DNA from: an uncultured Acidobacteriaceae bacterium | Lineage (GTDB): Bacteria; Acidobacteriota; Terriglobia; Terriglobales; Acidobacteriaceae | DNA length: 64,000 bases | Assembly: GCA_963760175.1 (NCBI GenBank) | Contig: CAVXBU010000026.1 | Span: 29,075 to 93,074 of the forward strand | Direction: 5' to 3' | In this document: positions 5,925 to 46,521 of the stretch, piece after piece | Layout of the letters: the number at the start of each line of letters is the position of its first letter | How positions within the stretch are numbered: position 1 is the first letter of the stretch | Notes under the pieces: model-generated | Database searches by the model: none | Seen by the model: the letters and a program-made list of their open reading frames with translations, nothing else | What the model was told of the DNA's origin: nothing | Translations under genes and position numbers: made by a program

Positions 5925-6767
5925 TTACGTTGAATAAAGAAACTCCAGCGCCTCCGGAAACCGCGCTGCCCATGCCGCTTCGTTGTGTGTGGCGCCTTCT
6001 TCGATGCGCACCTTGAGCCGTTTTTCGTCCAAGCCAGCCGCGCGCAGGATCGCTTCCAGTTCGCGTACGTCGTCGACAATCTTCGCGTCGTTCTCCGCGT
6101 TCCCCGTTTCTCGCGTCCCCATCCCCAGATACATGCGCGCCGGCCAACCGCGCGAGCGACGGCTCTCTCGGAGAATTTTTCGGTTCGCCACGAACAAAGA
6201 CGGACTCTCGATCAGTAGTCGCCCAAAGACTCCGGGCGCTGCCAGTTGTGTGTAGAGCGCGATCAGGCCTCCCAGAGAGGACCCGCCTAATCCGGTATTC
6301 TCTGGCCCCCTCAGCACCGAATAACGTTCTTCGATCAGCGGCATCACTTCACGCCGCAGAAACTCGGGGTAGCATTTTCCCTTCGCGTCCGGAACTCTGG
6401 GATCTTTTGACTTGTAGGGAATGTATTCGTTAGCCCGGTTCTTCGTGTTGTCGATGCCGACGATAATCAGTGGTGGAATTTTGTGTCCGGCGATCATCCG
6501 CGCCGCGGTTTCGCCGACCCGCCAGTCGACTCCCGCAAAAGCCGTCAGGGGATCGAAGAGATTCTGTCCGTCATTCAAGTACAGGACCGGATAGCGCGTC
6601 GCGCCCCAGCCGTCGTACTCCGGAGGCAGCCAAACCCGCACCAGCCGCGTGTTCCCGAAGATCTGGCTGGGGAGTTCATGCACCCACAGGTTGCCCGCCG
6701 AAACCGGCAGGGCGGTGGCTGCAGCTTTCGTTTTGATTCTCAGGGTTCGCGTTGTGGGCTGGGGCAT
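5925..6767 (-). CDS. Putative esterase (esterase D / IroE-like alpha/beta hydrolase)
   Basis: 'YPVLYLNDGQNLFD' is typical of the putative-esterase family. 'GGSSLGG' GxSxG nucleophile elbow. 280 aa. Confidence 0.8.
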   Translation of the reverse strand: MPQPTTRTLRIKTKAAATALPVSAGNLWVHELPSQIFGNTRLVRVWLPPEYDGWGATRYPVLYLNDGQNLFDPLTAFAGVDWRVGETAARMIAGHKIPPLIIVGIDNTKNRANEYIPYKSKDPRVPDAKGKCYPEFLRREVMPLIEERYSVLRGPENTGLGGSSLGGLIALYTQLAAPGVFGRLLIESPSLFVANRKILRESRRSRGWPARMYLGMGTRETGNAENDAKIVDDVRELEAILRAAGLDEKRLKVRIEEGATHNEAAWAARFPEALEFLYST

Positions 6768-6854
6768 GAAGTGAATCGAGCTTACAGCTGTCAGCTCTCA
6801 GTTTTCAGAAAAAACATTCGGGCCGGACCCGGGTTCGCTGGTGCTGACCACTGG

Positions 6855-7268
6855 TTACTGGCTTCTGTTGCGCTTCAACCAGATGAGCGCTCCCAAAATC
6901 GTCGTCGTCGCAATCAGGGCCAGCGAACTTAAACATAAAATGCACCAGACTCCAAGCACGTGCCCTTCAATGTAGGTCAGGTACAAAGCAAACGCCAGGC
7001 CCATGCCCGCGGCGCCGAAAAGCATTGTCGGAGTCTCGCGCCGCTCGCGATATACGGTCGCGAGGCCCGCTAACGCAGCGTACCCGAGCATCCCAATCAG
7101 CGCGACCGGGATTCCGAAGATCGACGAATATTCGCTGCGGTTCACGATGTCGCAGTTGAACGCTTCTCCGACATCGCAGTACGCCGTCTTCGAGGTCGCG
7201 TAATGATGTTGCAGGGACACCGACGACACCACGATTCCGCACACCGCCAGAACGGCGACGAGGCTCAT
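6855..7268 (-). CDS. Vitamin K epoxide reductase (VKOR) family membrane protein
   Basis: Loop cysteines 'YCDVGEAFNCD' and a membrane CXXC 'WCILC', with four hydrophobic segments. The ATG at 7268 (MSLVAVLAVCG) is preferred over the long upstream ORF extension. Confidence 0.75.
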   Translation of the reverse strand: MSLVAVLAVCGIVVSSVSLQHHYATSKTAYCDVGEAFNCDIVNRSEYSSIFGIPVALIGMLGYAALAGLATVYRERRETPTMLFGAAGMGLAFALYLTYIEGHVLGVWCILCLSSLALIATTTILGALIWLKRNRSQ

Positions 7269-7288
7269 GAGGCGCCGCGTGAAACTGG

Positions 7289-7723
7289 TCACTGAAGCGG
7301 GCACCCTGTCCGGTCGCTCAGTGCTTCGAGAGAGAAAACACGTTCCACTCGTTCGCCGGTTGGTGGAAATTGCCAGGTGGGATAGTGCTCGATGTTCGCA
7401 TCGATGCAAGCCTGCGATCTGCCGTGTGTCTGTCCTTTGATGCCGCACTCCACGTAAGGAGCGTATTCGAACGATGCGCCGAATTTTTCCTTTTGCTCCA
7501 CGCAATGCGGACACCACCACGCGCCATACATCTTCACGCCGCGGTCGGTCAGACAGCGCGCGAAAGCGTCGTGCTTATGCTGCATGCGGTTGCCGAGATA
7601 GTAGGCCAGCCCGAACGCGGCCGCGATCAGGACTGCATAGATCGCGATGCGCCGCCATTTCCGGCTCGCCGCCGTTGGTGCCCCCAGCTTTTCCTTTTGC
7701 CGTTCTCTTCGCTCTTGCGACAT
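7289..7723 (-). CDS. Membrane-anchored thioredoxin-like protein of the VKOR-partner type
   Basis: One N-terminal TM segment (IAIYAVLIAAAFGLAYYL). 'KMYGAWWCPHCVEQKEKFG ... YVEC ... YPTWQF' matches the Trx-like domain that is fused to VKOR in cyanobacteria. Confidence 0.75.
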   Translation of the reverse strand: MSQERRERQKEKLGAPTAASRKWRRIAIYAVLIAAAFGLAYYLGNRMQHKHDAFARCLTDRGVKMYGAWWCPHCVEQKEKFGASFEYAPYVECGIKGQTHGRSQACIDANIEHYPTWQFPPTGERVERVFSLEALSDRTGCPLQ

Positions 7724-7841: not shown

Positions 7842-8789
7842 TCACACCACGACCCGCAAGGCCGCGGGCAGCACGTCGATGGTCCGGCACTCCAGCGTCA
7901 GCACCTCGCCATCCACCATCACGTCCACCGGCCGGTCGAGTTGAAACTCGACGCGCCTTACAGCGTGTCGTTCCGCCAGCGGATGCCGAGTGTGAGTGCC
8001 ATCATAAAGCGTCGCCAGGTTCCAGATCAGCCCCAGTCGCCCAATCGGCCCCCACCGCACATACTCAATCATTCCATCGTCGGTTACCGCATCGGGCGCG
8101 ATCATCATTGTGCCGCCGGTGAACTTGCTGTTGTTAAACGTCAGAAACAAGCAGGGCCGCGAATCGAACTCTTGTTGCATGCCTTGCTCGCCTTCAAACC
8201 GCACGGGAAACGGGCGTCGATTGAGCCGCGCCAGACAAAGAAAGATCGATAACAGATACCCGAACTGCCCCAGCCCCTGAAACTTCCGATGCCGTAGGGT
8301 CGCCACGTCCGCCGCAAAACCCACACTTAGCAGATTGGTGTAGTAGATCGTGCCATCTTTATGGGTGAGTCTCAGAATATCGCAAGGCCGCGATCGGCGC
8401 GCCTCCAGCGCCTGCATCGCGTGCTCCAAACCGCCCTTGGCGGAAACTTCGCCCGTAAAATCGCGCAGAAACGAATTGCCCGTGCCCAGCGGAAGAAATC
8501 CCAGTGTCGCGACTGCATCTGCCGGATTACCCGCTCCTGCGAGCGAATCCGGAAACAGCCCGTTGACGATCTCGTAGGAGGTGCCGTCTCCGCCCACGGC
8601 TAGAAACTTCCGATATCCGCGTCGATAAGCCGCGCGAGCAATCTCGGTGGCCTCGCCAGCCGCGCGAGTCTCGGCCGTCTCCAGCGCAATCCCCGCAGCC
8701 CGCAGGCGATCGAGCGCCGGTCCCACGCGCTGGCCGCAACGCCCTCCACCCGCAGCCGGATTGACAATCGCAAGAAAAGTTTCGTTCAC
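7842..8789 (-). CDS. Diacylglycerol-kinase-like lipid kinase (YegS/BmrU family)
   Basis: 'AIVNPAAGGG' and 'FLAVGGDGTSYEIVNG' DAGK catalytic motifs, followed by 'LPLGTGNSF'. 315 aa. Confidence 0.85.
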   Translation of the reverse strand: MNETFLAIVNPAAGGGRCGQRVGPALDRLRAAGIALETAETRAAGEATEIARAAYRRGYRKFLAVGGDGTSYEIVNGLFPDSLAGAGNPADAVATLGFLPLGTGNSFLRDFTGEVSAKGGLEHAMQALEARRSRPCDILRLTHKDGTIYYTNLLSVGFAADVATLRHRKFQGLGQFGYLLSIFLCLARLNRRPFPVRFEGEQGMQQEFDSRPCLFLTFNNSKFTGGTMMIAPDAVTDDGMIEYVRWGPIGRLGLIWNLATLYDGTHTRHPLAERHAVRRVEFQLDRPVDVMVDGEVLTLECRTIDVLPAALRVVV

Positions 8790-8829
8790 AGGTCAGGTGC
8801 CAGGTCTCAGATCTCAGGGGACCATCCGG

Positions 8830-10539
<1,710 letters not shown>

Positions 10540-10620
10540 TCAGGTCGTTATCTCACCACGGAGACACGGGGACACCGAGAAAAACACGAGTTTACCAGAA
10601 CGTAACCATGGGAAGTGGTT

Positions 10621-10869
10621 CTAGAGCCGAGCCTGAATCCGATTCGCCAGCGTACGAAAATCTGACACGCCCTGCAGTTCATAGTCCGGCAATTCGATGC
10701 GGAAGTGATGCTCGAGGCGGGTGAGCAAGTCGAGCGCCTGCAGGCTGTCGATTCCGAGTGTCTTGAAAAAGTCGTCGTCGGGCGTGAGCTTTTGCCGGGG
10801 CACCTTGAAATGCGCAGCCGCAAGATTCAGGATTTCGTCGAGCGTGTGATCGATAGTCGGCGCAGACAT
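10621..10869 (-). CDS. Acyl carrier protein (stand-alone phosphopantetheine-binding)
   Basis: 82 aa with the 'LGIDSLQALDL' DSL phosphopantetheine attachment motif. Confidence 0.85.
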   Translation of the reverse strand: MSAPTIDHTLDEILNLAAAHFKVPRQKLTPDDDFFKTLGIDSLQALDLLTRLEHHFRIELPDYELQGVSDFRTLANRIQARL

Positions 10870-10895
10870 AACGGGATAGTCCCTCTAATTACAGA

Positions 10896-11700
10896 TTAAG
10901 GTAAATACGGCTGCACTCCCTCATTCTCCACAAACTTGCGCAACCCCTCTTCGACGGCCGGACGCGAATAGAGGTCGCAGAAAATATCAATCTCCCGCTT
11001 TAGCTCATCATACGGAATCGGCTTCACAAACTCCTTCGCCGCCGCTGCCGTCCGCCGGTCAAATTTCCCGACCTGGCTGGCCGTGGCGCGTGCTACACGC
11101 AGCGCCTCACCTTCCGCGGCAATCTGGCTGACCAGACCAATCTGCTGCGCCTTCATCACGTTGAAGCTGCGTCCGGTGAGCAGCAGGTCGCGCACCACCG
11201 CATTGCCCAAATCCCGCTTCAGACGGGGAATCCCGCCGAATCCTGGAATCAGCCCGAGGCGCAGTTCCGGAAAGCAGAATCGCGCCATGCGGTCGGCAAT
11301 AATAATGTCGCACACCAGCGCCAGCTCGAAGCCGCCGCCAAAAGTCACGCCGTGCACCGCGGCGATGGTCGTTAGCGGCGCCGCGTCGAGCGCGTTCATG
11401 ACGGCGTGTATGCGCTCCAGGAACTCTCGCACGCTGCGCAGGGCTGTGGCCTTTTCCATCTCTTGCCCGCGTTCAAATAACTCGCGCAAATCCGCGCCCG
11501 CCGAAAACCCGGCCTTCAACGTCGAATGGATTATCAACGCCTGCGCTTCATTCGCCACTCTGGGCAGAGCCGACGCAAATTTCTCCAACTCTTCCAAGCG
11601 TGAGCGACCCAATCTCGTTGCAGGGATCGCGATGCAATGCCAGCTCAATCGCTCCATTCACGATCTGCCACGAAAGCGTCTGCCCTTTGAATTCGTTCAT
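10896..11700 (-). pseudogene. Enoyl-CoA hydratase/isomerase (crotonase) family protein, frame broken near 11594 as assembled
   Basis: 'FSAGADLRE' and 'HGVTFGGGFELALVCD' crotonase motifs. The N-terminus MNEFKGQTLSWQIVNGAIELALHRDPCNEIGSLTL is in another frame, starting at ATG 11700 (ATGA overlap with the upstream stop). Removing one G in 'cttggaa' joins it to EELEKFASAL. Confidence 0.8.
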
Positions 11701-13442
11701 GCCGTCTTCGCCGCCTCGTCTTTCGAGGTCTGATTCTGCGACGCCTGACTCTGTGAGGCCCGATCCTGCGAAGCCTTATACATCGCGTCGATCTCGTCGC
11801 GAAAGCGTTCGGCAATCAAATCGCGCTTCAGCTTTCCGTTCGCAGTGAGCAGCCCGCTCTCGATGCTGAACGCTTCCTCCACCAGATGAAACGCCCGCAC
11901 CTGCTTGTAATGCGGCAGGTCCGGATTCACAAGGTCGAGCGCCGCCTGCGCTTTTTCGCCGCTTACTTTGCCGGTGATCAGCGCCGCCAGATATCCGCGC
12001 GCGTTGCCCAGAAGCACGACCTGACTCGCACCGGGCAACTCCTGCAGAATCTTATCTTCAATCGGCTCCGGCGCAATGTTGTGTCCTGACCCAAGAATAA
12101 TCAGGTTCTTGAGGCGGCCGATAATCTTCCAGTTTCCGTTGGCGTCCGCTTCACCCTGATCGCCAGTGTGGAACCAGCCATTGCGGAGCACCTTTGCCGT
12201 CTCCTCCGGACGATTCCAGTATCCCGGAAAAATATTCGGCCCGCGCACCACGATCTCTTCATTCTCCGCGATCTTCATCTCTACGCCAGTAATGGCCGGC
12301 CCCACGCGTCCCGCTACCACCGCGCCGTCCGGATCATCCAGGGTACAAAGTCCGGTGGTCTCGGTGAGTCCATATCCCTGGAGCACTGGAATGCCAAGCA
12401 TCATAAAAAACTGCTGCGTCTCCACACTCAGCGGAGCCGAGCCGCAGATCAGCGCGCGCAGCTTGCCGCCGATCATCTTTTTTCGAATCGTCGGAAACAC
12501 CAGCCGATTCGCCAGCCCCAGCCAAAGTCCGTCTCCGCGGCGCGCTTTGCCCTCCTGCCGCCGCACCCACGCGCCTTTCGCCCTGGTGTACACCTGCAGC
12601 GGAAGTCCGCCCGTCTTCCAGAGTTGCTCGTCGACCGCCCGGCGCATGCGCTCGAGAAGCGCGGGAACATTCAGGAAATAATCTGGCGCGGCCAGCCGCA
12701 TCTCAGCAGCAATCTTGCCGAGATCCGTATTCAACGTCAGCTTACTGCCGCGCAGCAGACAGGTCAGCATCATGATCCACGAGCCCGCAAAACTGAGGGG
12801 CAGATAATGAAAGACGTCATCTTGTCTCTGACGCTTCTTCCCCGTGTCACCCGGTATCGGTTGGCTCCGCATAAGCTGGTCGAGCCGCCCCGAGGTGCAG
12901 CCCAACATGTGAGCGACGTTGCCTGCGTTCAGCATCACACCCTTCGCCTCACCGGAGGTGCCGGAGGTGTAGATGATGGTCACCACATCTTCGTCAGCCA
13001 CCGTCAGCGCAGGATTCTCCACGGGCTCGCGCGCTGGCGTGAAGACATTTTCGAAGCAGAAAGTCGGCGGCGCTTCCGGCCACGCGTCCACGATCGCATC
13101 GGCAAGCGACTTGTCACCGCAGGCAATCACCGCGGGCCAGCAATCTTTCATCATCGCGACCAGTTCGGCAGGGGCCTGCCGCGCATACAGCGGCACCACC
13201 GTCAACCCTTCCGCCATGATGGCCAAATCCATCGCCACCCAATGCAGGGAGTTATGCGCCAGCAGCGCGCAACGATCACCCTTCTTCAGGCGCAAGCGCC
13301 GCAAATAAGCGCGCGCCACCTTCACCTGAGCCAGCACCTGCCGCGCGGTGATCGGAGCCGCCTGCCCATCGCGGAGTTCCTGCAACACGACGGTGTCGCC
13401 GCTGCGCTCCAGGTTCGCAAGAATTTGTTCAAGAAATCCCAT
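11697..13442 (-). CDS. AMP-dependent acyl-CoA/acyl-ACP synthetase (long-chain fatty-acid ligase type)
   Basis: 'YTSGTSGEAKG' P-loop, 'GYGLTETTG', and 'HTGDQG ... GRLKNLII'. 581 aa. Confidence 0.9.
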   Translation of the reverse strand: MGFLEQILANLERSGDTVVLQELRDGQAAPITARQVLAQVKVARAYLRRLRLKKGDRCALLAHNSLHWVAMDLAIMAEGLTVVPLYARQAPAELVAMMKDCWPAVIACGDKSLADAIVDAWPEAPPTFCFENVFTPAREPVENPALTVADEDVVTIIYTSGTSGEAKGVMLNAGNVAHMLGCTSGRLDQLMRSQPIPGDTGKKRQRQDDVFHYLPLSFAGSWIMMLTCLLRGSKLTLNTDLGKIAAEMRLAAPDYFLNVPALLERMRRAVDEQLWKTGGLPLQVYTRAKGAWVRRQEGKARRGDGLWLGLANRLVFPTIRKKMIGGKLRALICGSAPLSVETQQFFMMLGIPVLQGYGLTETTGLCTLDDPDGAVVAGRVGPAITGVEMKIAENEEIVVRGPNIFPGYWNRPEETAKVLRNGWFHTGDQGEADANGNWKIIGRLKNLIILGSGHNIAPEPIEDKILQELPGASQVVLLGNARGYLAALITGKVSGEKAQAALDLVNPDLPHYKQVRAFHLVEEAFSIESGLLTANGKLKRDLIAERFRDEIDAMYKASQDRASQSQASQNQTSKDEAAKTA

Positions 13443-13474
13443 GTTGATATGAAGTGGAAATTCTAGAAGTGCGG

Positions 13475-14884
13475 CTATCCGTATGCCGCCACCAGTTGCC
13501 TCAAGCCCTCATTCATCGGCGGCAAATAATCCTCCCAGCTCCATTCGCCGCGCCGGGTCGGAAATTCCGGATACCGCCGCTGCACCTCTTCCTCGAAATA
13601 CACGCCCATGCGCGCCATCAATTTCAAATTCCTCACCACCGTCCGCGCAATTCCGTCGGCGATTCGTTCCCCGTCGCGATCCAGAATTTCGAGCGCTGCC
13701 AGAGTTCGTGCCTCAAGATCCGGATCATCCACATTCATCAGCAACTCCTGATGCCCGCGCTCGTTCATCAGATTGCGGATGCGTTCATCCATGGTGATCC
13801 CCGCCGACGCCACCAGCGCCGGCATTGAAGTCACGATCCCGTGATAACGCGACGACACCATCATGCGGCAGGCGCGCAGAATGCTGACCAGTTGATACAT
13901 GTTGTAATCGTCCGAGGATATTATCGGAACTCCTCCCAGCTTCTCCGAAATGCGCCGGCATGGCCGTGCATCCATGCGCTCGGTCGCCGCCATGATCACA
14001 AACACACTCTTCTTCTGGCGAAACGACGCGACCGCATTTGCGATCGAATTCAAGTAATGTTCGTAAGCCCGATCCGCCTCGGGCCCGGCATTATGAAAAT
14101 AGGGTCCGCGGTAGTGGCTCTCCTTATATGCCCCGGTCAGGCGGTGCAGCGCGGCCTTCGCCACCGACGCCTTGACCGGCCACTCAAACGGGTTGATCGG
14201 ACACACCACGAGCACGGGCGTCTTTCCATCCCAACCCACGTCGCGTAGCGCTTTCTGGCCATACTCGGCGCCCAGCGGCTCGAACGTCCAGGCTGTGTCG
14301 GTGCCCAATTCGGTGGGTACACCCAATTCTCGCAGGATTTTCCGCGACTCGTCATTGCGGGTGATCACCAGCGAGTTTTTGCAATAGCGTCCGCACATCT
14401 TCGCTACCACGGGATCCATCTGTCCCGCCTCGGAGCCGTAGCCGACCGACAACTTGTTCTCGGCCGCCGCAATCCCCAGCGATCCGATCATCATCGTCGC
14501 CAGCGCATTGGCGAATTTTGATTTGAAAGCCGAACCTTCACACGCCACCACACCGTGATGCTTGGGCACTTCACTCGCCAGGAACGGCGGGAAAACATCC
14601 GGCAGCCGCACCTGCGAAGTGCCCTCGAAATATCCGCGCGACCGGTCAAAATTAAACGTCATCATGCTGAAGTCGACGTTTTCCGGCCCAAGAATCCGCC
14701 GAATCTGCCGCAGCATTTCTTCTACACGCACATCGGAGCCGGTATTGCGCGTCCCGTTGTAGCCGGCAAACAACAGCTTCAGTTTTTCGCCCGGCTGCCA
14801 CGGCTCGCGCTTTCCCATCATCCACTGAATTTTCTTGCCCTCGATGATGCTCGATACCCACGCTTCCAGAACGAAGTCCATCAT
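13475..14884 (-). CDS. Polysaccharide pyruvyl transferase-like family protein
   Basis: 'LKLLFAGYNGTRNTGSDVRVEEML' and 'SSRYHGIVTSMPALVASAGI' resemble WcaK/CsaB-type pyruvyl transferases, judged from memory of the family pattern. ATGA overlap with the upstream gene. Confidence 0.55.
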   Translation of the reverse strand: MMDFVLEAWVSSIIEGKKIQWMMGKREPWQPGEKLKLLFAGYNGTRNTGSDVRVEEMLRQIRRILGPENVDFSMMTFNFDRSRGYFEGTSQVRLPDVFPPFLASEVPKHHGVVACEGSAFKSKFANALATMMIGSLGIAAAENKLSVGYGSEAGQMDPVVAKMCGRYCKNSLVITRNDESRKILRELGVPTELGTDTAWTFEPLGAEYGQKALRDVGWDGKTPVLVVCPINPFEWPVKASVAKAALHRLTGAYKESHYRGPYFHNAGPEADRAYEHYLNSIANAVASFRQKKSVFVIMAATERMDARPCRRISEKLGGVPIISSDDYNMYQLVSILRACRMMVSSRYHGIVTSMPALVASAGITMDERIRNLMNERGHQELLMNVDDPDLEARTLAALEILDRDGERIADGIARTVVRNLKLMARMGVYFEEEVQRRYPEFPTRRGEWSWEDYLPPMNEGLRQLVAAYG

Positions 14885-16019
14885 GCCGCAGAGCCTCCCG
14901 CCCTGGTGCTCTCGGGCCAGGCTTGATAAGGGTATGTGAAATTGTGCTCGCGGCTGAAGCGGAGCAGCGGAAAACTGTAATGTGAAAACGGCACGGGCTT
15001 GCGTCCCAATTCCGTCGTGACGCGCGTGTTGTCGAAGACTGTGTTCCAGGTCAAATACGGCAGAAAGACCTTCATCAATGCGGCTCCGTGCCCCACTGAT
15101 CCTTTTCGGTTTGCCAGCGTGTTGACGATGGAGCCGAATGGCTTTTCGAGGATTGGCAAAAACACTGGCCCGCGCTTGTTCTGCTCAGCGGCGAGCGCCT
15201 GGGTCAATTCCTGAAACGACTGGGGCCGTTGCCCGAAGAAAGATGATAGGTATCGTGCTCGGGATCGGCCTTCATGTGCAAAGTCGAAATCGCGTCGGCA
15301 ACGAAATCCACATTCACAATGTCAATCTTGTCATGGGGACGAAACGGCAGCACCGGCAATCCCGCCAGAAACACGAACGACCGCACCATATCGAACTGCG
15401 TCGTTTGCGGAAAGCGGCTGTCTCCCAACACGATGCTCGGCCTGAAAATCGTCAGCGGCACGTCCGGGAGCAACTCGCGCACCATATGCTCGCAGAATTT
15501 TTTCGTGCGCGCGTAGGGATCGTAATCCGAGCGTTCCCAGTCAATCGACCGGTCTTCCACCACAACTTCGTGGCTGCGCTTCCCTGCCACTGCGACCGTG
15601 CTCACGTTGGAAAACCGCCGCAGGCCGTGATAGTACTGCGATCGCCGCGCCAGTTGCAGCACTTCGAGCGTCCCGCGCAGATTCACATTCAAGCAACTTT
15701 TTTCCGACTTCCGATTCAGCGAAGCCGCGCAGTGGATCACTGAATCGGTGGTGTGCACGAGCCGGTCGTAATCGCCCGGGTCCAACCCGAACTGTGGCGA
15801 GGTCAGATCGCCGCGAAAAATCCGGATCTTCGCCTGCAGGTATTCGTAGAATTTAGGGAACGGCAAGTGTAACTGGATGGCATTCCAAAGCCGCAGTTCC
15901 GCGTCACGCGGATCGCGGCCGCGCACGAGAAGATTCAGCGATGCGTCATGCTGATCGAGCAGATTAGCGGCGACATGGGCGCCGATGTACCCGGTCCCAC
16001 CGGTCAGGAATATTGCCAC
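14881..16019 (-). pseudogene. NAD-dependent thioester/acyl reductase (NAD_binding_4 / SDR-e type), frame broken at about 15222 as assembled
   Basis: '[14 protein letters not shown]' Rossmann motif and 'YARTK' YxxxK. ORFs 15204-16019 and 14881-15207 sum to about 379 aa. Adding one C to the run at 15222-15225 gives ...[20 protein letters not shown]... Confidence 0.75.
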
Positions 16020-18472
16020 GTTGCTCCGTTTGTTCCCGTCTTCACGGCATCGCCATTTTCTGGCGCTTTTGAAGGTGGCGCAGGCGAAGGTGGCATGTGC
16101 AGCACCCGCGGTGCGCGCGCTTCCAGCGGCCGCCCTTCAATCAGTGGATACGTCCATCGCCGCAATGCCGGAATATGGATGTCAATCCAATACTCCCACC
16201 AGTCCAGCCCCGCCGTGTCATATCCGAAAATCTCTTTCTCTTCGGGCGTCAGGGCCTGCGACAACTTCTCTACATTATCCGCGACAAAATCATGTTCGTT
16301 TTGCAGAATAAACGGCTCGAACAGTCCCACTAATTTTTCCACGCGCTCCAGGTTACGCTCGGTTTTCGCCAGTGGCTTCTTCATGGCCGATGGCAGCGGC
16401 GCCATCACTCGCTGAATCGACTGGATAATCATTCTCTGCGCCGGCGCCGACATCCGGTTATAACGCTCCTTTGAAACCGGAATCGCATCCATGCGCAATC
16501 GTAGCCAGTACTCCAGGCCTTCCTGGGCTCGGTAGTGACGGCGATGGCCCAGGCTCGTCAACTCAATCGACCGTCCCATGTCGCAAGGATTGGTCACCGA
16601 CGTCGCCAGCTGATACATCGGATCGTGCCGCCGCTCCACCAGCGCCGCGCCAATCAGCGTAATCCCCGCGCACACCGCATCCACTGGAATAATGTCCAGC
16701 CGCTTGCGCTGGTTGGAAGGGAGCTGCCGAAAGGTTGTCCCCAGCAGATACGAAAGCGAGGCCGAAGTGTTGATCCCTTCATTCCACCCACGAAACGGCT
16801 TCGTCACCGAAGTCTCGACAATCGACGGCCGCACAATCGCAATCGGAAGGCCCGCGCCATGTTTAGCAATCAGCGATTCCGCCAGGCTCTTGGTAAACGT
16901 GTAGGTATTTGGCCAGCCCAACTCGTTGGCGCGCCGCGTGGCTTCTTCCGTAAGATAATTTTTCAGCCACCGAACCCGGTTCTTGCGGATCTGATTTTCC
17001 AGCGCCTGGCCGCTCAGCCCTTTTGCGGCATGCTCTTTGCCGAGCGCTTGCTGCTTAAGCTCCTCGGTAACTTCCGGTCCTTCCGCCCGCGCCTCCGCCG
17101 ACTCCACCAGTTCATGCAGACGACGCCACTCTTTTTCCGAGTCGAAGTTCTTCAGGTGCGCCGGAGTGTAATTCAAGCGCACGCGCTCACTGACCCGCCC
17201 ATCGCGCTGTCCCGCCACATAGCAAGTCGAAAGATGCAGCAACGCCGCGTGATCGGACGCGCGAATAAATTCGATCAAGTGCGATGCCGAATCTACGTTC
17301 ACCGCCAACGCGTCCCGCAGATCGGGATTGAAATCCGTCAACCCCGAGCTGTTGATGATCAGATCGATCTCCGCACGCAGGCGCGTCGCCGTCTCTGAAT
17401 CCATTCCCAAGCCGGGCTGCGCGACATCACCCTCCACCACTTCAGTTTTTTCCTTCAGCAGCGCGCCCAGCCGGTCACCGTATTTTTCAAACAAGGGATC
17501 GAACACCGGCGACCCTTCAATGATTTTCTCGAAGCGCTTCTGCGCCGGACTCGATTTCTGCCGCCGGATCAGCAGATACAACTTTCCGATTTCAGGCAGA
17601 TCCATCAAGGTGTTCGCCAGCCACACTTTGCCGATAAATCCGGTGACGCCGATCAGCATCACGCGCTTGCCGCCCAGCGCCTTGCGCACCGAAAACGGCT
17701 CCGGGTGGCGCTTTTCATTGAAATACACAATCGGACGAACGCGCGGCGCTTCCACTCGCACCGCTGGAACAATCGCCGAGGCCAGCGCCTTCGGACCGCG
17801 CAGTCCGAGCGCCCGCACCCATCGCGCCGGACTCTGCTGCCCGTCTGGACCATCTTCACGAATCCGGGCAAACAATCCCCGCGGCCGGATCACCGGACTG
17901 AGTAGCCGTCCGGTGGCAACGCCGTCGCGGAAATCGAGTCGGTTGGCTATAATCCAACGCACTCCCAGATACCGCGCCAGCGGCCGCATCACGTGCTCCA
18001 ACCCCTGGCTCACCAGCACCACGTCGACGCCGGTCGCCTGCAACGCTTTCAGGTGCCGGACTCCTTCTTCTTTGAGCAGCGGCTTCAACTTGTATTCGAA
18101 TTCCTCCTCGCCCAGCAGATCGAGCCGGTCGCGGGTAATCCCGCGCAGCACGGCGTGGACGATCCGAGTCGCGGCGACGCGGTTCGCGGCATATAAAAAT
18201 GGCCGCAGCAACGCCATCAAAAGCACCAGGCTGCGGCGCACGGCTCGCGCGATATAGGTCTGGCTGTTCCAGGTAAAAAAAGCGATTGGTCGAACCGTGG
18301 TCAGCTCCAGCAGACTTCCCTCGACACGCCAGTAAACGGGCGATGAAGGCCGCGAACGAGGAGGCGGCGAAACGACTCCCGAGGCCGACGGCAGGGCTGC
18401 TGTCGGCGCGTCCGGGTCAGCCGGAGCACCCGCAAGTCCTCGTTCCCTTTCGAGATTGTCCACAGGTTCCAC
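16004..18472 (-). CDS. Fusion protein: HAD-IB-like domain plus fatty acyl-CoA/ACP reductase (NAD_binding_4 and 'male sterility' C-terminal domain)
   Basis: '[14 protein letters not shown]' Rossmann motif, 'STCYV', and 'YTFTKSLAE' YxxxK. The N-terminal ~200 aa resemble HAD-IB phosphatases. 822 aa, GTG start. Confidence 0.8.
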
Positions 18473-18667: not shown

Positions 18668-19877
18668 TCACTTCGCCCGCGCCAGTTCACGAATCTGGTT
18701 CAGGTACCCCACGTACACCGGGATCGGAATATCCGGCGAGTCCCCATCATTCAGGAAATGAGACAGTTGAATCTCCATGGGAATCGAACTGATAACTTCG
18801 CGGAACCGCGCCATCTTCAAATACTTCACCCGCCAGATCTCGAGCATCAACGAACGAAACTCTTCGCTGATAAAGCCGATCCGCCGATCTCCGAGATAGA
18901 CGGCGTCGAAATGTCTTGCGCCGAGCGCCTTCCGAACGGGATCGTCGGGTAGAGAGAATTCATATACGAGATGAAACACATCCGCCAGATCGCCCCACAG
19001 CGTTTTTTCTTCGAACGCACTGAAGCGGAATGAGGCCGCGCCGCGCTGCTGAACCGCCCGCGCATGATCGCTCGGGCTCAGCCCGTGACTCCCCAGTTCC
19101 GCACGAAACCATTGCAATCGCTGCGTTGCAAGGTTGTGCCGCAGGAATTCGATAGCATAAGCGTTCGGCAAGTAGATCTTGGGATCGCCATCGAGGCGCG
19201 CCAGCCACGGCCCCCAGTCGCTTCTGTTCCAGTAAGTCGAGTAACTCCTTCAAATCGGCTAGCGTAACATCGGGCTGATACTTCACCGCCTGCCAGAAAT
19301 GTTCAGTCGAGTCGTAAGTCGCGCCATAAAGCTGGATACCTTCCTCAATTAGGTACCAATTCGACAGCACGCGTCCGGGGATCGACGGTGACGCGCTCCA
19401 GCAGTTCAGCGAATGCTTCCATTTCTCCTGCACAGCCAGAAACGCCTCGCCGTATCCCGGCGGAATCGGCTCGGTTACGTGCGCAAGGGCCTGCCGCAGC
19501 TCTTCGCTGGTGTGTGTTACCAGCGTCTCCAGCGGCCGCTCGTCTTCCATGGAGATCACGCGGCTTTCGATTCCGCGCCGCAGCAATTCGCCCGCCAGTT
19601 GCCGCCGCTGCTCTTGATCCAGACCGCCCTGAACATTCCAGCGCCGCGTTTGCGACTCGATATACGGGAATAACTCGGCCAGCGACTTGAACTCGATGAA
19701 CGCATGAAGCGCGAATGTCACCGGGCGGCCATTCTTTACGATCGTGGTTGAAGGAGTAACCAGTGCCTGCAGAGAAGTAGCTTCCGCGCACAGTGGTCGG
19801 ACCACGCTAATGACCGTTAATGTCGTACATAATATCAACCAAGAGACAGCTTGTATATTCCTTGAACGCTTCTTCAC
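18668..19877 (-). pseudogene. Secreted NADAR (YbiA/DUF1768)-like protein, frame broken at about 19215-19225 as assembled
   Basis: Signal peptide (VSWLILCTTLTVISVVRPLCAEA). 'LSNWYLIEEGIQLYGATYDSTEHFWQAVKY' matches the NADAR 'FSNF..(n)..W.TSEHYFQA.KF' pattern. The continuation DWGPWLARLDGDPKIYLPNAYAIEFL... is in the frame of ORF 18668-19171. Confidence 0.55.
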
Positions 19878-23022: not shown

Positions 23023-23649
23023 TTACTTCACGCAGAACGCAACTATTGTCTGTCCACGCGGACCTCGCGTCTTCTCCAGTTGCCCCACCAGCTTCGATTC
23101 CAGGGCGTCCGTATCCGCAACCATCTCGCAGGCAGCGATCTGTTCATCAGTCGCTCCGTGATAGCAAAGCTCGCAGACCCCCAGGCCACCTTCTGCTCGT
23201 ACGGGAGGACCAAACGTGCGGCAAGTCATCGGCCTCGCGTCGTAGAGATCGCACAATCCGGTCTCCGGATCGAGCACCGGGCAAGGCTCATCATTGGCAA
23301 ATTCCGCGAAGCGCTCTTCCGCCTCCGGACCTTCGTCGAGAATGCCCGTCTTTGGATTGCCGGGAAACTCTGCCGACAAGCGCTGAATCGAATCTCGCGC
23401 ACGCTCGCGGATCCGCCCCGCTCGCTGCGGGTCCGCCTTTTCCAGATCGGCCAGCCCGCGCTGCAACCGCAACGCATCCAGTTGATTGATGGCAAACACC
23501 CCGACACAGCACTGCGTGCACCCGGGACGACACACCAGCCACTCGCCGCTACGGCGCGTGGCATCGGCCAGAGCCGCGTCGACGATCTGGATCAGGACCG
23601 AATCCGCAGCCGGTAATGGTCGCGACGGCATTCGGGAAGCATACCGCAT
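23023..23649 (-). CDS. YkgJ-family cysteine-cluster protein (UPF0153, CxxCxxCC)
   Basis: 'CRPGCTQCC' motif plus later Cys residues (CPVLD ... CDLYDARPMTCR). The start is uncertain (23649 or 23715). Confidence 0.7.
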   Translation of the reverse strand: MRYASRMPSRPLPAADSVLIQIVDAALADATRRSGEWLVCRPGCTQCCVGVFAINQLDALRLQRGLADLEKADPQRAGRIRERARDSIQRLSAEFPGNPKTGILDEGPEAEERFAEFANDEPCPVLDPETGLCDLYDARPMTCRTFGPPVRAEGGLGVCELCYHGATDEQIAACEMVADTDALESKLVGQLEKTRGPRGQTIVAFCVK

Positions 23650-23701
23650 GGCCCCGGTGGCCGGGAGCGCTCCACCCTTGCGCTCCACCCGCAAATAGTC
23701 T

Positions 23702-24898
23702 TTGATAATCCCCATGACAATTTCGCTCCGCCGACGCCTGCCCTGGCTCGTTCTCGTCGCCATCCTGTCGCTGGTGACCATAACCGCCGCCAAGGAACCC
23801 CCCAAGAACAAGTATCTGCTCTTCGTTGGCACTTACACCGAGAAGGAAAGCAAGGGCATTTATGCCTACCGTTACGATGCCGCATCCAATCAACTAACTC
23901 CTCTGGGTGTAGCGGCGGAAACGACCAATCCCTCATTCTTAGCGATCGACCCGAGTCGCCGCTTCCTGTATGCCGTAAATGAAGTGCAGAACTATAAAGG
24001 CGCGAGCAGCGGAGCGGTAAGCGCCTTTGCCATCAATCTTGGGGCTGACGGTCGTCAGACCGGCACCCTATCTCTGCTGAACCAAGTCCCCTCGCGCGGC
24101 GCTGACCCGTGTTACATCGCATTCGACAAGAGCGGAAAATACGCTCTGGTGGCCAACTATACTGGAGGAAGCGTCGCTGTGTTCCCGGTTCAGTCGGACG
24201 GCCACATCGGCGACCCTTCCGCGTTCGTTCAGCACCGGGGGTCGAGCGTCAATAAAGAACGACAGGAGGGCCCGCATGCTCATTGGATCGAAACCACGCC
24301 CGACAATCGTTTCGCGATAGCTGTCGATTTAGGCCTGGATGAGTTACTCGTCTACCACTTCGACGCCAGTAAAGGCTCCCTAACTCCAAACGATCCGCCC
24401 TACGCCAGTGTCGATCCCGGAGCGGGACCGCGCCACCTGGCTTTTCATCCCAATGGAAAATTTGCCTACGTCGTCAATGAATTGCAATCCACCATCACCG
24501 CTTTTAGCTATGATCCGGGCCGAGGCGTCCTTGAGAAACTGAAGACGGTCTCGACGCTTCCAAAAGGATTCTCCGGCAGCAACGATACGGCTGAAATTCG
24601 GGTCCATCCTAACGGTAAGTTTCTATTCGCCTCGAATCGCGGACACGATAGCATCGCCGTCTTCTCTGTCGACAGCCGCACAGGAGCCCTGACCCTTGTG
24701 GATCACTACCCGACGCAAGGGAAGACGCCGCGTAACTTCGAGATTGATCCCAGTGGAAAGCTTCTGTTCGTCGCCAACCAGGGCAGCGACAATATCGTAG
24801 TTTTTCGAATCAACTCCGACAACGGAAGACTGACGCCCACCGGCCAGACCCTCAATGTCCCCTCGCCAGTGTGCCTGAAGTTCATGCTCGCCGACTGA
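23702..24898 (+). CDS. Lactonase family 7-bladed beta-propeller protein (6-phosphogluconolactonase-like), secreted
   Basis: Signal peptide (LPWLVLVAILSLVTITAA). Repeated 'G..P.h.af.p.Gk.ayv.N' blades, e.g. GADPCYIAFDKSGKYALVANY and GAGPRHLAFHPNGKFAYVVNE. An alternative start is at 23714. Confidence 0.85.
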   Translation: MIIPMTISLRRRLPWLVLVAILSLVTITAAKEPPKNKYLLFVGTYTEKESKGIYAYRYDAASNQLTPLGVAAETTNPSFLAIDPSRRFLYAVNEVQNYKGASSGAVSAFAINLGADGRQTGTLSLLNQVPSRGADPCYIAFDKSGKYALVANYTGGSVAVFPVQSDGHIGDPSAFVQHRGSSVNKERQEGPHAHWIETTPDNRFAIAVDLGLDELLVYHFDASKGSLTPNDPPYASVDPGAGPRHLAFHPNGKFAYVVNELQSTITAFSYDPGRGVLEKLKTVSTLPKGFSGSNDTAEIRVHPNGKFLFASNRGHDSIAVFSVDSRTGALTLVDHYPTQGKTPRNFEIDPSGKLLFVANQGSDNIVVFRINSDNGRLTPTGQTLNVPSPVCLKFMLAD

Positions 24899-27148: not shown

Positions 27149-27462
27149 TCTGCTCTCGCTTTCCTCTAGCTCGGGAGATTGGAACTGTCCCCACGGTCCC
27201 GCGTACGGGAACCAGTGCAAATAGACCCTTTCCACGGAGAAACCTACCTGTAAAACCCAGAAGTTTCGAAGCCTGGAATGGTCACATTGATACTATTGAA
27301 TCCGTGACATTTAGGCACGAAGAAGGCAATGAAGGGGAGAAAAACGGGGTTAAGCGGGGAAATGGGGGATTTTTTGGGGGTAAGTTGTTGAAAAGATGGG
27401 GACATGGAATGGCAGGCAGGGCTAACGGCAAAGGGTCCTTCCCGGACGGCCCCAAACGGCGA

Positions 27463-41459: not shown

Positions 41460-42226
41460 ACTGGAAAACATTTTTCGCGATGCTGGCGCGCGACGCCCAC
41501 GTAGCGAGGCGTAACGCCATTCAACTCCTTCTGCAAACATTTCTGCAGCCACTGCTCTTTGTGTTCATTTTCGGCCGGGTGATGGTCGGCAGCGGCTACA
41601 TGCCTGCGGCGTACAAGAGCCTTCTGCTGCCGGGCATTATCGCAATCAGCATGGTCTTCACCGGAATCTGGGCGGTGGCCATGCCGCTCATTGCCGAGTT
41701 TCAGTGGACCCGCGAAATCGAAGACCGCCTGCTCGCCCCGATCGACGTCGCCTGGATCGCGATCGAGAAAGTCATTGCCGGAATGCTTCAAGCGGTGGTC
41801 GCCGGCCTGATCGTAATCCCGCTAGCCTGGCTCGTGCTTCGACCAGGAGTTGAAATCAGTATTCATGCGCCGTTGACGTTCGCTGTAATCATTGTGCTGG
41901 TAGCGACCTTCTCCGCATGCGGAGGACTGGCCCTGGGGTGCAGCATCAATCAGCAACATATCGGGCTGATGTTTGGCATGGTAATTACTCCCATGATTTT
42001 TTTTGGCTGCGCGTATTATCCCTGGAGCGCGCTGAAAACCTTCCCTATCCTGCAAAAAGCTGTGCTCATCAACCCGCTGGTGTACGCCAGCGAAGGACTG
42101 CGCGCCACTTTGGTTCCGCAGTTCCCGCATTTATCGATAACGGCGGTGCTGATCGCGCTGCTTTTCTTCGACGTTCTGCTGCTGGTGGTAGGGCTTCGGC
42201 AGTTCGAAAAGAAGGCGGTGAGTTGA
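41456..42226 (+). CDS. ABC-2 type transporter permease
   Basis: 256 aa with six hydrophobic segments. ATGA-type overlap with the ATPase gene. Confidence 0.8.
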   Translation: MNWKTFFAMLARDAHVARRNAIQLLLQTFLQPLLFVFIFGRVMVGSGYMPAAYKSLLLPGIIAISMVFTGIWAVAMPLIAEFQWTREIEDRLLAPIDVAWIAIEKVIAGMLQAVVAGLIVIPLAWLVLRPGVEISIHAPLTFAVIIVLVATFSACGGLALGCSINQQHIGLMFGMVITPMIFFGCAYYPWSALKTFPILQKAVLINPLVYASEGLRATLVPQFPHLSITAVLIALLFFDVLLLVVGLRQFEKKAVS

Positions 42227-43459: not shown

Positions 43460-43932
43460 GAGCCAACCTTTACCGGTTGCGGAGCAGGTTCCCTCACCGG
43501 CGGCTGATTGATGACCAGCCAGTACAATCCCGCAGTTTTCACCGTCTCCCGAAACTGGTCGAAGTCGACCGGCTTCTGGATATAGCTGTTCACGCCCAGG
43601 CGGTAACTCGCGGCCAAGTCCCGGTCTTCTTTAGAGGAGGTCATAATCACGATCGGGATGGTCTTGGTCCGAGGGTCGCTCTTGACCTGTTTGAGCACTT
43701 CCATTCCATCCACCTTGGGGAGTTTCAAATCCAACAGAACTAATTTGGGGGGATGATCAAACGATCTCTCCGCGTAGGCCCCGCGACAGAAGAGGAAGTC
43801 CAGGGCTTGCTCGCCATCGCCCACAATGAAAATGTTGTTGGCCAGGTTCTCCCGCCGCAGCGCGTGCAGCGCCAGATCTCTATCGTCCTGATTGTCTTCC
43901 ACCAATAGTATGTCGAGTTTTCCTGGATTCAT
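43456..43932 (-). CDS. Single-domain response regulator (CheY-like)
   Basis: 'ILLVEDNQDD', 'LVLLDLKLPKVDG', 'IVIMTSS' and 'YIQKP' receiver motifs. Confidence 0.9.
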   Translation of the reverse strand: MNPGKLDILLVEDNQDDRDLALHALRRENLANNIFIVGDGEQALDFLFCRGAYAERSFDHPPKLVLLDLKLPKVDGMEVLKQVKSDPRTKTIPIVIMTSSKEDRDLAASYRLGVNSYIQKPVDFDQFRETVKTAGLYWLVINQPPVREPAPQPVKVGS

Positions 43933-45952: not shown

Positions 45953-46103
45953 GAATCCGGCGTCGCCCCTTGGTGAGTTATCGGCAAAAGCGTTGCCGTC
46001 ACCAGCAAATGAAGAGGTTACTGAGGGTCGCGGCGGAAGCCAGGGTACGCAGACACGCGCGCGAGCCGGAGATCGAAGGTCTCCGGCTCGCCCGTCGGGA
46101 CCA

Positions 46104-46499
46104 CTACGATGGCAAACCTCCGCCCCAGCCCGCCCGCAGGCTGGCGCGAATCACTCCCAGCAATTCCTCGTTGTCGGCAGGCTTCTGGAAGAAAGCGACG
46201 GCGCCCGATTCGAGAGTACGTTTTTCGTTGCCTTCGGGATCGCGGGCGGTGAGCACGATCACCGGAATCGCCGAAAGCGCTGGAAACTCTTGCAAGTGTT
46301 TCAGCACGGCAAATCCGTCGCCCGCCGGCAGCCCGAGATCGAGGATGATCAGGTGGGGCTTTTCTTTCTGAGCCATGGCGATGGCGGAATAACCGTCACA
46401 AACATTCACGGTGTCGAAGTTATTGGCCCGCAGACGCAAACTCAGGGCCTGTCTGAGATCGGGATCATCATCCACGACCATAATCTTTGCTCGATTCAT
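46104..46499 (-). CDS. Single-domain response regulator
   Basis: 'IMVVDDDPD', '[13 protein letters not shown]', 'VIVLTA' and 'FFQKP'. ATG 46499 is preferred. Confidence 0.85.
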
Positions 46500-46521
46500 G
46501 GGCTGCTGGTCAAGGTAACTT

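Follow-up and report, generated by a model that had tools for sequence, protein, structure and literature searches.

In this work we describe a conserved operon of eight co-directional genes in a soil acidobacterium (g1 to g8, minus strand, positions 7842-18472 of the window, by which we mean the whole 64,000-nt stretch of DNA analysed). The operon most probably serves the synthesis of a membrane lipid, a general assignment to which we give a probability of roughly 80%. It seems to be related in logic to the elb system of myxobacteria, but with a chemistry of its own. Specifically, we tentatively propose a route to alkylglycerols based on phosphoenolpyruvate (PEP), which we consider possible rather than probable. 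In the literature searched, we found no account of the g1-g8 operon.

Gene content of the operon

The genes are tightly packed. The overlap between g1 and g2 comprises 16 nt, the stop codon of g2 overlaps the start of g3 by 4 nt, with g3 being translationally coupled, and the remaining intergenic gaps are 26 to 81 nt long. A previous sequence-only reading had listed eight co-directional genes with named domains, and every one of these domains is backed by Pfam matches.

The first gene, g1 (16004-18472), has matches to HAD (E 4.5e-12), NAD_binding_4 (E 2.5e-53) and Sterile (E 2.3e-10). Its product is predicted to be a fusion of two parts, a HAD-like domain in degenerate form (about residues 45-210) and a fatty acyl reductase (FAR) of the alcohol-forming type. 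The FAR part shows the corresponding architecture, a NAD_binding_4 Rossmann domain (residues 274-603) followed by Sterile/FAR_C (residues 705-772), and the translation contains VTGFIGK and YTFTK, which correspond to the GxxGxxG and YxxxK motifs. In the HAD-like domain, motif I reads R-x-E-G instead of D-x-D-G, R49 and E51 are invariant in all six aligned homologues, and the alignment to SerB leaves the first Asp of GDGxND unmatched. Because Arg-x-Glu replaces Asp-x-Asp, and the nucleophilic Asp of motif I, DxDx(T/V), is thus missing, a role as HAD-IB phosphatase seems unlikely. A profile search with the HAD-like domain matched only unnamed or MAG proteins. In Myxococcota and at other loci, HAD and FAR are encoded by separate adjoining genes.

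The second gene, g2 (14881-16019), encodes a predicted stand-alone thioester reductase (NAD_binding_4, E 1.8e-46; TIGR01746, 129 bits). Relatives carry it as one gene of 379 aa, whereas in the window it is divided into two ORFs, 15204-16019 (271 aa) and 14881-15207 (108 aa). Alignment of the DNA with that of five relatives showed that the window lacks one base after GGCAACGG, near position 15215. The second reductase proposed previously is recognizable by its NAD_binding_4 domain, but is split here by a 1-nt deletion and does not form a single ORF. If the frameshift is taken as real, g2 would be a fresh pseudogene and the pathway would be inactivated in this genome; the one-base gap compared to five relatives and the premature stop after residue 271 are in line with this. 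We nevertheless regard it as unlikely, since the 108 codons downstream have been preserved, lie in frame with the overlap to g3 and share 65-90% identity with their counterparts in relatives, while the gap is located at a C-run, a typical place for consensus errors, in an assembly that appears to be of the metagenome type. Furthermore, every other gene of the operon is intact.

The product of g3 (13475-14884) is a divergent member of the polysaccharide-pyruvyl-transferase family (PS_pyruv_trans, PF04230, E 1.9e-08, 35.0 bits vs. a cutoff of 25.3). It is followed by g4 (11697-13442), encoding an ACSL/FadD11-like adenylate-forming ligase (AMP1) with AMP-binding and AMP-binding_C_3 domains, and by g5 (10896-11657), encoding a predicted crotonase-fold enoyl-thioester hydratase (ECH_1, E 1.9e-37). 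When aligned to EchA8, the g5 product matches both Glu-containing motifs, GGGfELAl and fPElrLG, which we take to be the sites of the two catalytic glutamates of crotonases. A discrete acyl carrier protein (ACP) is encoded by g6 (10621-10869; PP-binding, E 9.8e-13), and the phosphopantetheine serine motif GIDSL is visible in its translation. The product of g7 (8830-10539) is a second adenylate-forming ligase (AMP2; AMP-binding, E 6.5e-65) and likely the loader of the ACP; in other phyla, the g7-type gene directly follows the ACP gene with zero gap or overlapping it. Thus, the operon harbours two ligases and one ACP only. The last gene, g8 (7842-8789), encodes a predicted lipid kinase of the YegS/DgkB type, in which both Pfam domains (DAGK_cat and YegS_C) were found and which scores 105.1 bits against TIGR00147 (cutoff 118.65).

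Conservation and genomic context

Among the 80 species-level loci of Terriglobia, all that extend far enough have kept the order g1 to g8, apart from two in which g7 and g8 were not found. The operon is also present at about 40-50% identity in Myxococcota, Planctomycetota and Pseudomonadota, and the order is retained there as well as on unassigned contigs. The gene block is far beyond chance. Its most conserved gene is g3, with 77-95% identity over the 80 Terriglobia species loci, and this conservation is on par with that of the neighbouring lipoamide dehydrogenase (92-95% vs. 91-96%).

Several variants were detected. The locus L089 contains neither crotonase nor kinase and ends with a permease of the MacB/FtsX type, the variant in Leptothoe comprises only the transferase, a pair of reductases and a single ligase, and in Schlesneria and Endozoicomonas the g3-type transferase occurs alone. 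The alkyl sulfatase encoded beside the g3 homologue of Schlesneria paludicola belongs to an enzyme type that releases fatty alcohols. At three loci (L087, L088 and L091; one from Planctomycetes, one from Pseudomonadota and one on an unassigned contig) the homologous operon is closed by an acyltransferase of the PlsC/AGPAT type (PF01553). The lack of an acyltransferase noted earlier thus holds for the window, from which PF01553 is absent, but not for these three homologous operons.

On the same strand as the operon, 6.5 kb upstream of g1, the gene at 24992-27235 encodes a radical-SAM protein homologous to the tetraether lipid synthase Tes. It matches NF045702 with 312.8 bits (E 3.6e-93) over model positions 2-483 of 486, a score under the equivalog cutoff of 450 bits. 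A Tes homologue was found in the upstream flank of 13 Terriglobia loci, and in L079 it directly adjoins the operon. Because this linkage recurs, it supports a role of the operon in membrane lipid synthesis. Peat and soil Acidobacteriota, the same organisms and habitats in which the operon is found, have been discussed as sources of brGDGTs. The likeness to the Tes/Mss/Ger-PlsA routes, which have been proposed for membrane-spanning and ether lipids of bacteria (brGDGT biosynthesis), consists in the recurrent Tes homologue beside the operon in Terriglobia. Ger/PlsA, however, reduces an existing ester in a reaction that is sensitive to oxygen, whereas the operon, which is without a PlsA-like gene, would build chain and ether by reduction and transfer.

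Downstream of g8, the minus strand encodes a membrane-anchored thioredoxin-like protein with a WCPHC motif (7289-7723) and a VKOR (6855 to about 7268), both recognized by Pfam and in the translation, and a PF00756 esterase (5925-6767; Pfam). Within Terriglobia these genes (5925-7723) are syntenic; the operons of other phyla lack them, and whether they belong to the pathway is uncertain.

FAR and CAR-like modules alone yield alcohols and aldehydes. The product could therefore lie outside the membrane, as fatty alcohols or aldehydes for storage or for the cell surface, as wax-like compounds or as a small specialised metabolite, with the kinase and the transferase in tailoring roles only; the terminal permease of L089 would suggest export. 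We consider this very unlikely. Wax synthase, PKS and NRPS are all absent, the operon shows linkage to PlsC and the Tes homologue, and its single-copy synteny and housekeeping-level conservation over hundreds of species are atypical of specialised metabolism.

Comparison with CAR and elb

The logic of ligase, ACP and thioester reductase, which the sequence-only reading had recognized, is confirmed insofar as all three are present among the genes. An adenylate-forming ligase, a carrier protein and a NAD_binding_4 reductase are also the parts of carboxylic acid reductases (CAR; adenylation-thiolation-reductase). However, CAR is one polypeptide, whereas in the operon the domains are located on separate proteins and are accompanied by five further enzyme types. 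The partial matches to the CAR model NF041592 (g4, 128 bits; g2, 76.6 bits; g6, 15.9 bits) are far under its cutoff of 1300 bits, and the operon was therefore rejected as a CAR.

The operon was further compared with elb of M. xanthus, in which ElbD is UniProt Q1DC43. The operon and elb share their occurrence in Myxococcota and Acidobacteriota. According to a review, elb comprises ElbB (HAD-like), ElbA and ElbE (NAD-dependent epimerase family) and ElbD, which combines FAR-like, acyl-CoA synthetase, ACP and AGPAT parts. The locus tags MXAN_1672-1676 previously given for elbA-E are not correct, since they overlap the separate AGPS operon MXAN_1674-1676, while elb is another, distinct five-gene operon. 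Compared with the published description of elb, and not with its sequences, g1 provides both the FAR part and the HAD-like part, while the NAD-type reductase is matched by g2, the ligase by g7 and the ACP by g6. By domain type, the g1 N-terminus is thus the counterpart of HAD-like ElbB, and g2 (NAD_binding_4/Epimerase type) that of the NAD-epimerases ElbE/ElbA. The AGPAT part has its counterpart in the PF01553 proteins of the three loci mentioned above and none in the operon of the window. While elb fuses functions in ElbD, the operon has FAR, ligase and ACP as separate genes and no ElbD-like fusion. In addition, its core contains the pyruvyl-transferase-like enzyme, the crotonase, a second ligase and the lipid kinase, none of which was described as an elb component. 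For elb there is genetic evidence for ether lipids, whereas the operon is known here from its genes.

Based on these parallels, the operon could be an elb-type pathway in pieces, in which ligase, ACP and one or more reductases would supply a fatty aldehyde or alcohol, and this would be joined to a backbone derived from glycerol-phosphate or DHAP, as by ElbD/ElbB/ElbE. The kinase and PlsC would then feed phospholipid synthesis, and g3 and the crotonase would have an accessory function, such as tailoring of the head group or the chain. The inventory of HAD-like, FAR-like, ACS, ACP, AGPAT and NAD-epimerase types fits elb by description, the elb-like clusters of sponge symbionts are also flanked by DAG kinases and acyltransferases, and the linkage to the Tes homologue suits a membrane-lipid role. 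Still, we consider such a pathway rather unlikely, because it leaves no role for the crotonase or for g3, which is the most conserved gene and translationally coupled. The previous comparison with a disassembled elb-like pathway is supported with regard to the inventory, in which the parallel goes further than that reading had seen. However, g3, the crotonase and the second ligase do not appear in the description of elb, so the operon is not simply elb in disassembled form.

The pyruvyl-transferase-like protein g3

The AlphaFold model of g3 (pLDDT 91) matched GT-B enzymes and suggests a two-domain, GT-B-like fold, while a sequence search for a related solved structure in the PDB yielded none. 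With E. coli WcaK, hhalign aligned the motifs RxxxS, GxDTAW and SRxH, although the similarity is weak (probability 43.5%, E 2.4e-4); by comparison with Pvg1p and CsaB, these motifs presumably form the PEP site. Thus g3 resembles the polysaccharide pyruvyl transferases WcaK, CsaB and Pvg1p in passing the Pfam gathering score of PF04230, in its predicted fold and in the three motifs shared with WcaK. These enzymes, however, differ in having a glycan acceptor and belonging to glycan loci. Polysaccharide or glycan genes were found neither in the ten non-Terriglobia contexts of g3 examined nor in the Terriglobia context examined, and the contexts are lipid-related. Moreover, g3 scores 51 bits against the CsaB equivalog model (cutoff 213) and constitutes a family of its own, which comprises about 826 clusters when grouped at 50% identity. 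On the contexts examined, a glycan-acting transferase of a polysaccharide locus was therefore rejected. Natural fusions exist between a g3-type protein and a g4-type ligase (P0181; E 3e-70 to g4) and between a g3-type protein and the C-terminal region of FAR.

Characterised pyruvyl transferases form ketals on diols, and we know of no pyruvyl transferase recognized as releasing the enolpyruvyl ether of a mono-alcohol. Among the PF04230 homologues, ChtnH and CplI are lipid-tailoring: for ChtnH (chitinimine biosynthesis) action on lipid-chain hydroxyls was proposed, and in Collimonas a lipopeptide gains a pyruvyl mass through such a homologue. For one relative, an ester is reported as the product. 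This raises the possibility that the crotonase provides a 3-hydroxyacyl thioester which is reduced to a long-chain alkane-1,3-diol, and that g3 bridges the hydroxyls to give an anionic pyruvate-ketal lipid. It would agree with the canonical chemistry of the family, a ketal on a 1,3-related diol, and with the proposal of this chemistry on a lipid chain for ChtnH and the lipopeptide pyruvylation in Collimonas; the crotonase has kept its Glu-containing motifs, and two reductases are at hand. We think, nevertheless, that a ketal lipid is improbable. No acyl-CoA dehydrogenase that would produce an ordinary enoyl substrate is present in the operon, after closure of the ketal no free hydroxyl would be left for the lipid kinase or a PlsC-type acyltransferase, and the second ligase is unaccounted for.

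Proposed pathway

It is tempting to speculate that g3 forms an ether instead. What has been demonstrated are the families of the enzymes and the linkage of their genes, and from these the PEP-based route outlined here was drawn up. A fatty acid would be converted to a fatty alcohol via ligase, ACP and thioester reductase, and/or via the ACSL-type ligase and the FAR domain. Using PEP, g3 would set the oxygen of the alcohol on C2 of pyruvate; in this step the ether would be formed, resulting in an O-alkyl enolpyruvate, R-O-C(=CH2)-COOH. Its carboxylate would be activated to the thioester by the second ligase, the crotonase would hydrate the 2-alkoxyacryloyl double bond to yield a 2-O-alkylglyceroyl thioester, and a reductase would convert the latter to 2-O-alkylglycerol. 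Finally, the alkylglycerol would be phosphorylated by the lipid kinase g8 and the remaining hydroxyl acylated by a PlsC-type acyltransferase, which elsewhere is encoded in the operon and in this genome would be a housekeeping enzyme. By these steps, the three-carbon backbone would be derived from PEP and not from glycerol-3-phosphate. The data do not tie the individual ligases and reductases to particular steps.

Several points argue for the PEP route. Being a 2-enoyl acid by its very structure, an enolpyruvyl ether would suit the crotonase without an acyl-CoA dehydrogenase, and crotonase is able to hydrate methacrylyl-CoA, likewise a 2-substituted acryloyl thioester. Further, we count the retained order of the operon, the high conservation of g3, the Glu-containing motifs kept by the crotonase, the WcaK motifs of g3, its fusions to ligase and FAR, its non-polysaccharide contexts, the presence of two ligases versus one ACP, the recurrent Tes linkage, the terminal PF01553 at three loci and the lipid-hydroxyl proposal for ChtnH. 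In Schlesneria paludicola, the solo g3 homologue is located between the alkyl sulfatase and PEP carboxylase, which is weak circumstantial evidence for such a route. Against it we count the variants without some of the parts (L089, Leptothoe, Schlesneria and Endozoicomonas), the weak similarity to WcaK, and the fact that the known products of pyruvyl transferases are ketals and one ester. In addition, the PEP route predicts ethers of the sn-2 type (2-O-alkyl), whereas the ether lipids described so far for Acidobacteria and myxobacteria are mainly 1-O-alkyl.

The analysis adds an uncharacterised lipid operon of a soil acidobacterium, which is conserved over several phyla and often located near a Tes homologue. 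It is a testable candidate for the making of ether-linked membrane lipids in aerobic bacteria, and if the PEP route is true, PEP would be the source of a lipid's three-carbon backbone.

Gene content and conservation of the operon

Eight co-directional genes, called g1 to g8 here in the order of transcription, occupy the minus strand between positions 7842 and 18472, and the Pfam and NCBIfam matches agreed one for one with the domains named in the sequence-only reading. In the first gene, a HAD-like domain is joined to a fatty acyl reductase (FAR, with NAD_binding_4 and Sterile domains; g1, 16004-18472). It is followed by a stand-alone thioester reductase (g2, 14881-16019), a protein assigned to the polysaccharide pyruvyl transferases (g3, 13475-14884), an ACSL/FadD11-like ligase with an AMP-binding_C_3 domain (g4, 11697-13442), a crotonase (g5, 10896-11657), an ACP (g6, 10621-10869), a second ligase (g7, 8830-10539) and a lipid kinase of the YegS/DgkB type (g8, 7842-8789). 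The overlaps are 16 nt between g1 and g2 and 4 nt between g2 and g3, and all remaining intergenic gaps are shorter than 85 nt. A scan for promoters and terminators returned zero promoter-like sites, and its terminator matches were as many as expected by chance.

In the window, g2 is split into two ORFs of 271 aa and 108 aa, while its relatives have a single gene of 379 aa. Alignment at the DNA level with five relatives revealed that one base is missing after GGCAACGG, near position 15215. Since the 3' part beyond this break is intact and conserved and the missing base is located at a short C-run, an assembly error is more likely than a very recent pseudogene.

Relatives of g3 are numerous. Thousands of close relatives are named as Terriglobales, the family comprises approximately 826 clusters at 50% identity, and a scan with one genome per species found it in at least 587 genomes. 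Without exception, the best 80 of these genomes are MAGs of Terriglobia, sampled from peat, fen and soil, and their g3 identities are 77-95%. When every window protein was compared by tblastn with the 80 corresponding loci, the order g1 to g8 was complete wherever the contig was long enough, with two exceptions in which g7 and g8 were not detected. These are L082 and L083, in which g1 to g6 are present and the last two genes are apparently missing within 10 kb downstream. The best-conserved gene of the block is g3, and its conservation equals that of the neighbouring lipoamide dehydrogenase. The gene block is thus more than a chance arrangement.

Several neighbouring features were noted in addition. 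Downstream of the operon, a split disulfide-bond system (6855-7723, minus strand) consists of a thioredoxin-like protein (7289-7723), which is anchored in the membrane and contains a WCPHC motif, and a VKOR. The listed VKOR ORF (6855-7520) overlaps the thioredoxin-like gene, and therefore VKOR translation probably begins at the Met near 7268. According to the tblastn synteny, this pair and an esterase also lie downstream throughout Terriglobia; the pair is missing from the operon in other phyla. Directly upstream of g1, a 305-aa ORF without family match (18960-19877, minus strand) is kept in few close relatives only. The interval between the crotonase and ACP genes is only 26 nt in the window, while some close relatives, such as the loci L001 (14101-14493 of that locus) and L002, contain here an extra ORF of 130 aa without Pfam match. 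Farther away, three hybrid histidine kinase/response-regulator genes are located on the minus strand at 42131-48126 (42131-43459, 43929-45281 with a PAS domain, and 46522-48126).

Variants in other phyla

Distant loci were collected by a profile search with distant g3 relatives and inspection of their contigs. A Myxococcota MAG encodes the HAD-like protein and FAR separately, and the other seven genes follow as in the window. The same arrangement on an 11-Mb contig stops after the second ligase. An acyltransferase of the PlsC/AGPAT type (PF01553) follows the core in a Planctomycetes MAG, in which the locus begins at g3, in a Pseudomonadota MAG with the core order reductase-g3-ligase-crotonase-ACP-ligase-kinase, and on an unassigned contig that also contains HAD and FAR. 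Previously, no acyltransferase was seen for this operon; this holds for the window, to which that statement referred, and does not extend to these three loci.

Smaller sets of genes were also found. In one variant, which has neither crotonase nor kinase, g3 is accompanied by HAD-like protein, FAR, reductase, ACP and two ligases. In the cyanobacterium Leptothoe, it is accompanied by two reductases and one ligase. Natural fusions join g3 to a g4-type ligase (protein P0181) or to the C-terminal region of FAR (P0131). In the cultured species Schlesneria paludicola and Endozoicomonas atrinae, a g3 homologue exists alone and the operon is absent. The solo homologue of S. paludicola (54% identity; locus L094, 7313-14652) is flanked by genes for PEP carboxylase and for an alkyl sulfatase of the SdsA type. 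The former enzyme consumes PEP and the latter releases fatty alcohols, the substrates proposed below for g3, which is a weak hint and possibly a coincidence.

Relation to the elb operon and other systems

The operon had been interpreted from sequence as a disassembled counterpart of the elb ether-lipid operon of Myxococcus xanthus or of carboxylic acid reductase (CAR). It does not qualify as such a reductase under the corresponding NCBIfam model. According to a review, elbA and elbE belong to the NAD-dependent epimerase family, elbB is HAD-like, the function of elbC is unknown and elbD combines FAR-like, ACS, ACP and AGPAT parts. The locus tags cited earlier for elb (MXAN_1672-1676) were mistaken, since according to the same review they overlap the AGPS operon MXAN_1674-1676. 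Compared by description, and counting the acyltransferase of the other phyla, the whole elb inventory appears to be present here as separate proteins, and the idea of a disassembled elb thus has substance. Among sponge symbionts, elb-like clusters are likewise reported to have DAG-kinase and acyltransferase neighbours. However, three core genes of the present operon, namely g3, the second ligase and the crotonase, do not figure in the descriptions of elb. A mechanism of the elb type, in which g3 and the crotonase would be mere accessories, would account for the shared inventory and leave these two genes aside, and we regard it as a serious but rather unlikely alternative. In elb itself, the steps that turn the fatty acid into an alkyl ether, including the mechanism of ElbD, are unknown according to the review. 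The Ger/PlsA system is associated with anaerobes in the literature. Our literature search returned neither a description of this gene combination nor of enolpyruvyl- or PEP-based ether lipid synthesis.

In summary, the earlier interpretation is partly supported: the operon appears to be a widely conserved, uncharacterised variant of a reductive ether-lipid logic.

A Tes homologue upstream of the operon

A radical-SAM gene (24992-27235) lies 6.5 kb upstream of g1 and shares its strand. The 747-aa product has a zinc ribbon at the N-terminus and is homologous at full length to Tes, the tetraether lipid synthase, with a score of 312.8 bits for NF045702, which is below the equivalog cutoff of 450 bits. 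Such a homologue is present in the 10-kb upstream flank at 13 of the 80 Terriglobia loci (12/63 if loci whose upstream sequence is shorter than 9 kb are set aside). The 13 loci, counted without phylogenetic correction, are not independent events; they span identity groups of about 90% and about 80%, and in 12 of them gene and operon point in the same direction. At L079 the gene immediately precedes the operon with an ORF-to-ORF gap of 215 bp, and in L084 it is approximately 900 bp distant. Even so, this linkage has persisted through rearrangements, which connects the operon with the biology of membrane-spanning lipids. In the literature, Tes homologues are reported for only some Acidobacteria and only some producers of iso-diabolic acid. 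Between the operon and the Tes homologue, a protein with a CxxCxxCC zinc/iron-chelating domain (23023-23832, minus strand) is kept in the closest relatives.

We conclude, with a probability of roughly 0.8, that the genes form a conserved operon for a membrane lipid, in which fatty acids are reduced and a phosphorylated alkyl lipid is built. The PDB matches of both ligases are generic members of the ANL superfamily (FadD13, malonyl-, oxalyl- and OSB-CoA ligases) and are not decisive on the substrate or on CoA versus ACP specificity. A further alternative is a product outside the membrane; with the Tes linkage pointing to membrane lipids, we consider such a product improbable. A role in siderophore, PKS or NRPS tailoring was rejected, because such genes are absent and the conservation is at housekeeping level.

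A possible route through enolpyruvyl transfer

The predicted structure of g3 (pLDDT 91) has a GT-B-like fold with two Rossmann domains. A search with this fold retrieved generic GT-B matches with a TM of approximately 0.5; the top 50 included no pyruvyl transferase, and comparison of the family profile with PDB sequences gave zero matches at E <= 1. The profile match to E. coli WcaK is weak (probability 43%), yet RxxxS, GxDTAW and SRxH align. In Pvg1p and CsaB, the PEP site is lined by these motifs.

In the crotonase, both Glu-containing motifs are retained in the alignment with EchA8. In crotonases these motifs contain the two catalytic glutamates, which makes hydratase activity plausible. 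All aligned homologues of the HAD-like domain have R-x-E-G in place of D-x-D-G as motif I, and motif IV is degraded, so that a phosphatase role is unlikely; an active phosphatase was rejected because the nucleophile is missing. A profile of stand-alone HAD-like proteins matched only proteins from the same operon type. A 230-aa upstream ORF at L087, tried as a HAD-like homologue, was discarded since it did not align.

As the enzyme that would form the ether, g3 is a new candidate, and the following route can be drawn. A fatty acid would be converted to a fatty alcohol by ligase, ACP and thioester reductase and/or by the ACSL-type ligase and FAR. Then g3 would move enolpyruvate from PEP onto the alcohol, forming the ether bond, and the other ligase would convert the resulting 2-alkoxyacrylate to a thioester. 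The crotonase could hydrate this 2-alkoxyacryloyl thioester to a 2-O-alkylglyceroyl thioester, from which a reductase would release 2-O-alkylglycerol. The latter would be phosphorylated by the kinase and finally acylated by PlsC.

The route uses every conserved enzyme. It would explain a crotonase in an operon without dehydrogenase, two ligases with one ACP, a g3 that is translationally coupled to reductase and ligase and sometimes fused to the ligase, and the kinase and acyltransferase closing the operon. Against it are the reduced variants, which lack some steps of the scheme. In addition, we know of no family member that stops at the enolpyruvyl ether, and to our knowledge 2-O-alkyl products are not the main type reported from these phyla. 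In favour of the route, a published proposal already has the pyruvyl transferase family acting on lipid hydroxyls. Alternatively, g3 could build a pyruvate ketal on a lipid diol; this would fit that proposal as well, but the explanations listed for the crotonase and the two ligases belong to the enolpyruvyl route, and we consider the ketal quite unlikely. The PEP/enolpyruvate route as a whole, drawn from enzyme families and gene linkage, is tentative, with the odds somewhat against it.

Significance

The operon described here bears on the question of how alkyl ether bonds arise in aerobic bacteria, especially in those Acidobacteriota that are suspected producers of the palaeoclimate biomarkers brGDGTs. 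Many genomes of peat and soil Terriglobia carry it, it crosses phyla and it is repeatedly linked to a Tes homologue. The g3 family forms C-O bonds from PEP, a chemistry that could account for the step in which the ether is made. Thus, the ether question becomes directly assayable. A lipid operon with ten functions, at least four phyla and no characterised member merits characterisation even if the specific route is wrong. It is possible, though doubtful, that it represents a previously unrecognised, oxygen-tolerant ether-lipid route, in which pyruvate carbons would become the backbone of a 2-O-alkyl glycerol, and which together with the Tes homologue might supply brGDGT-type precursors.
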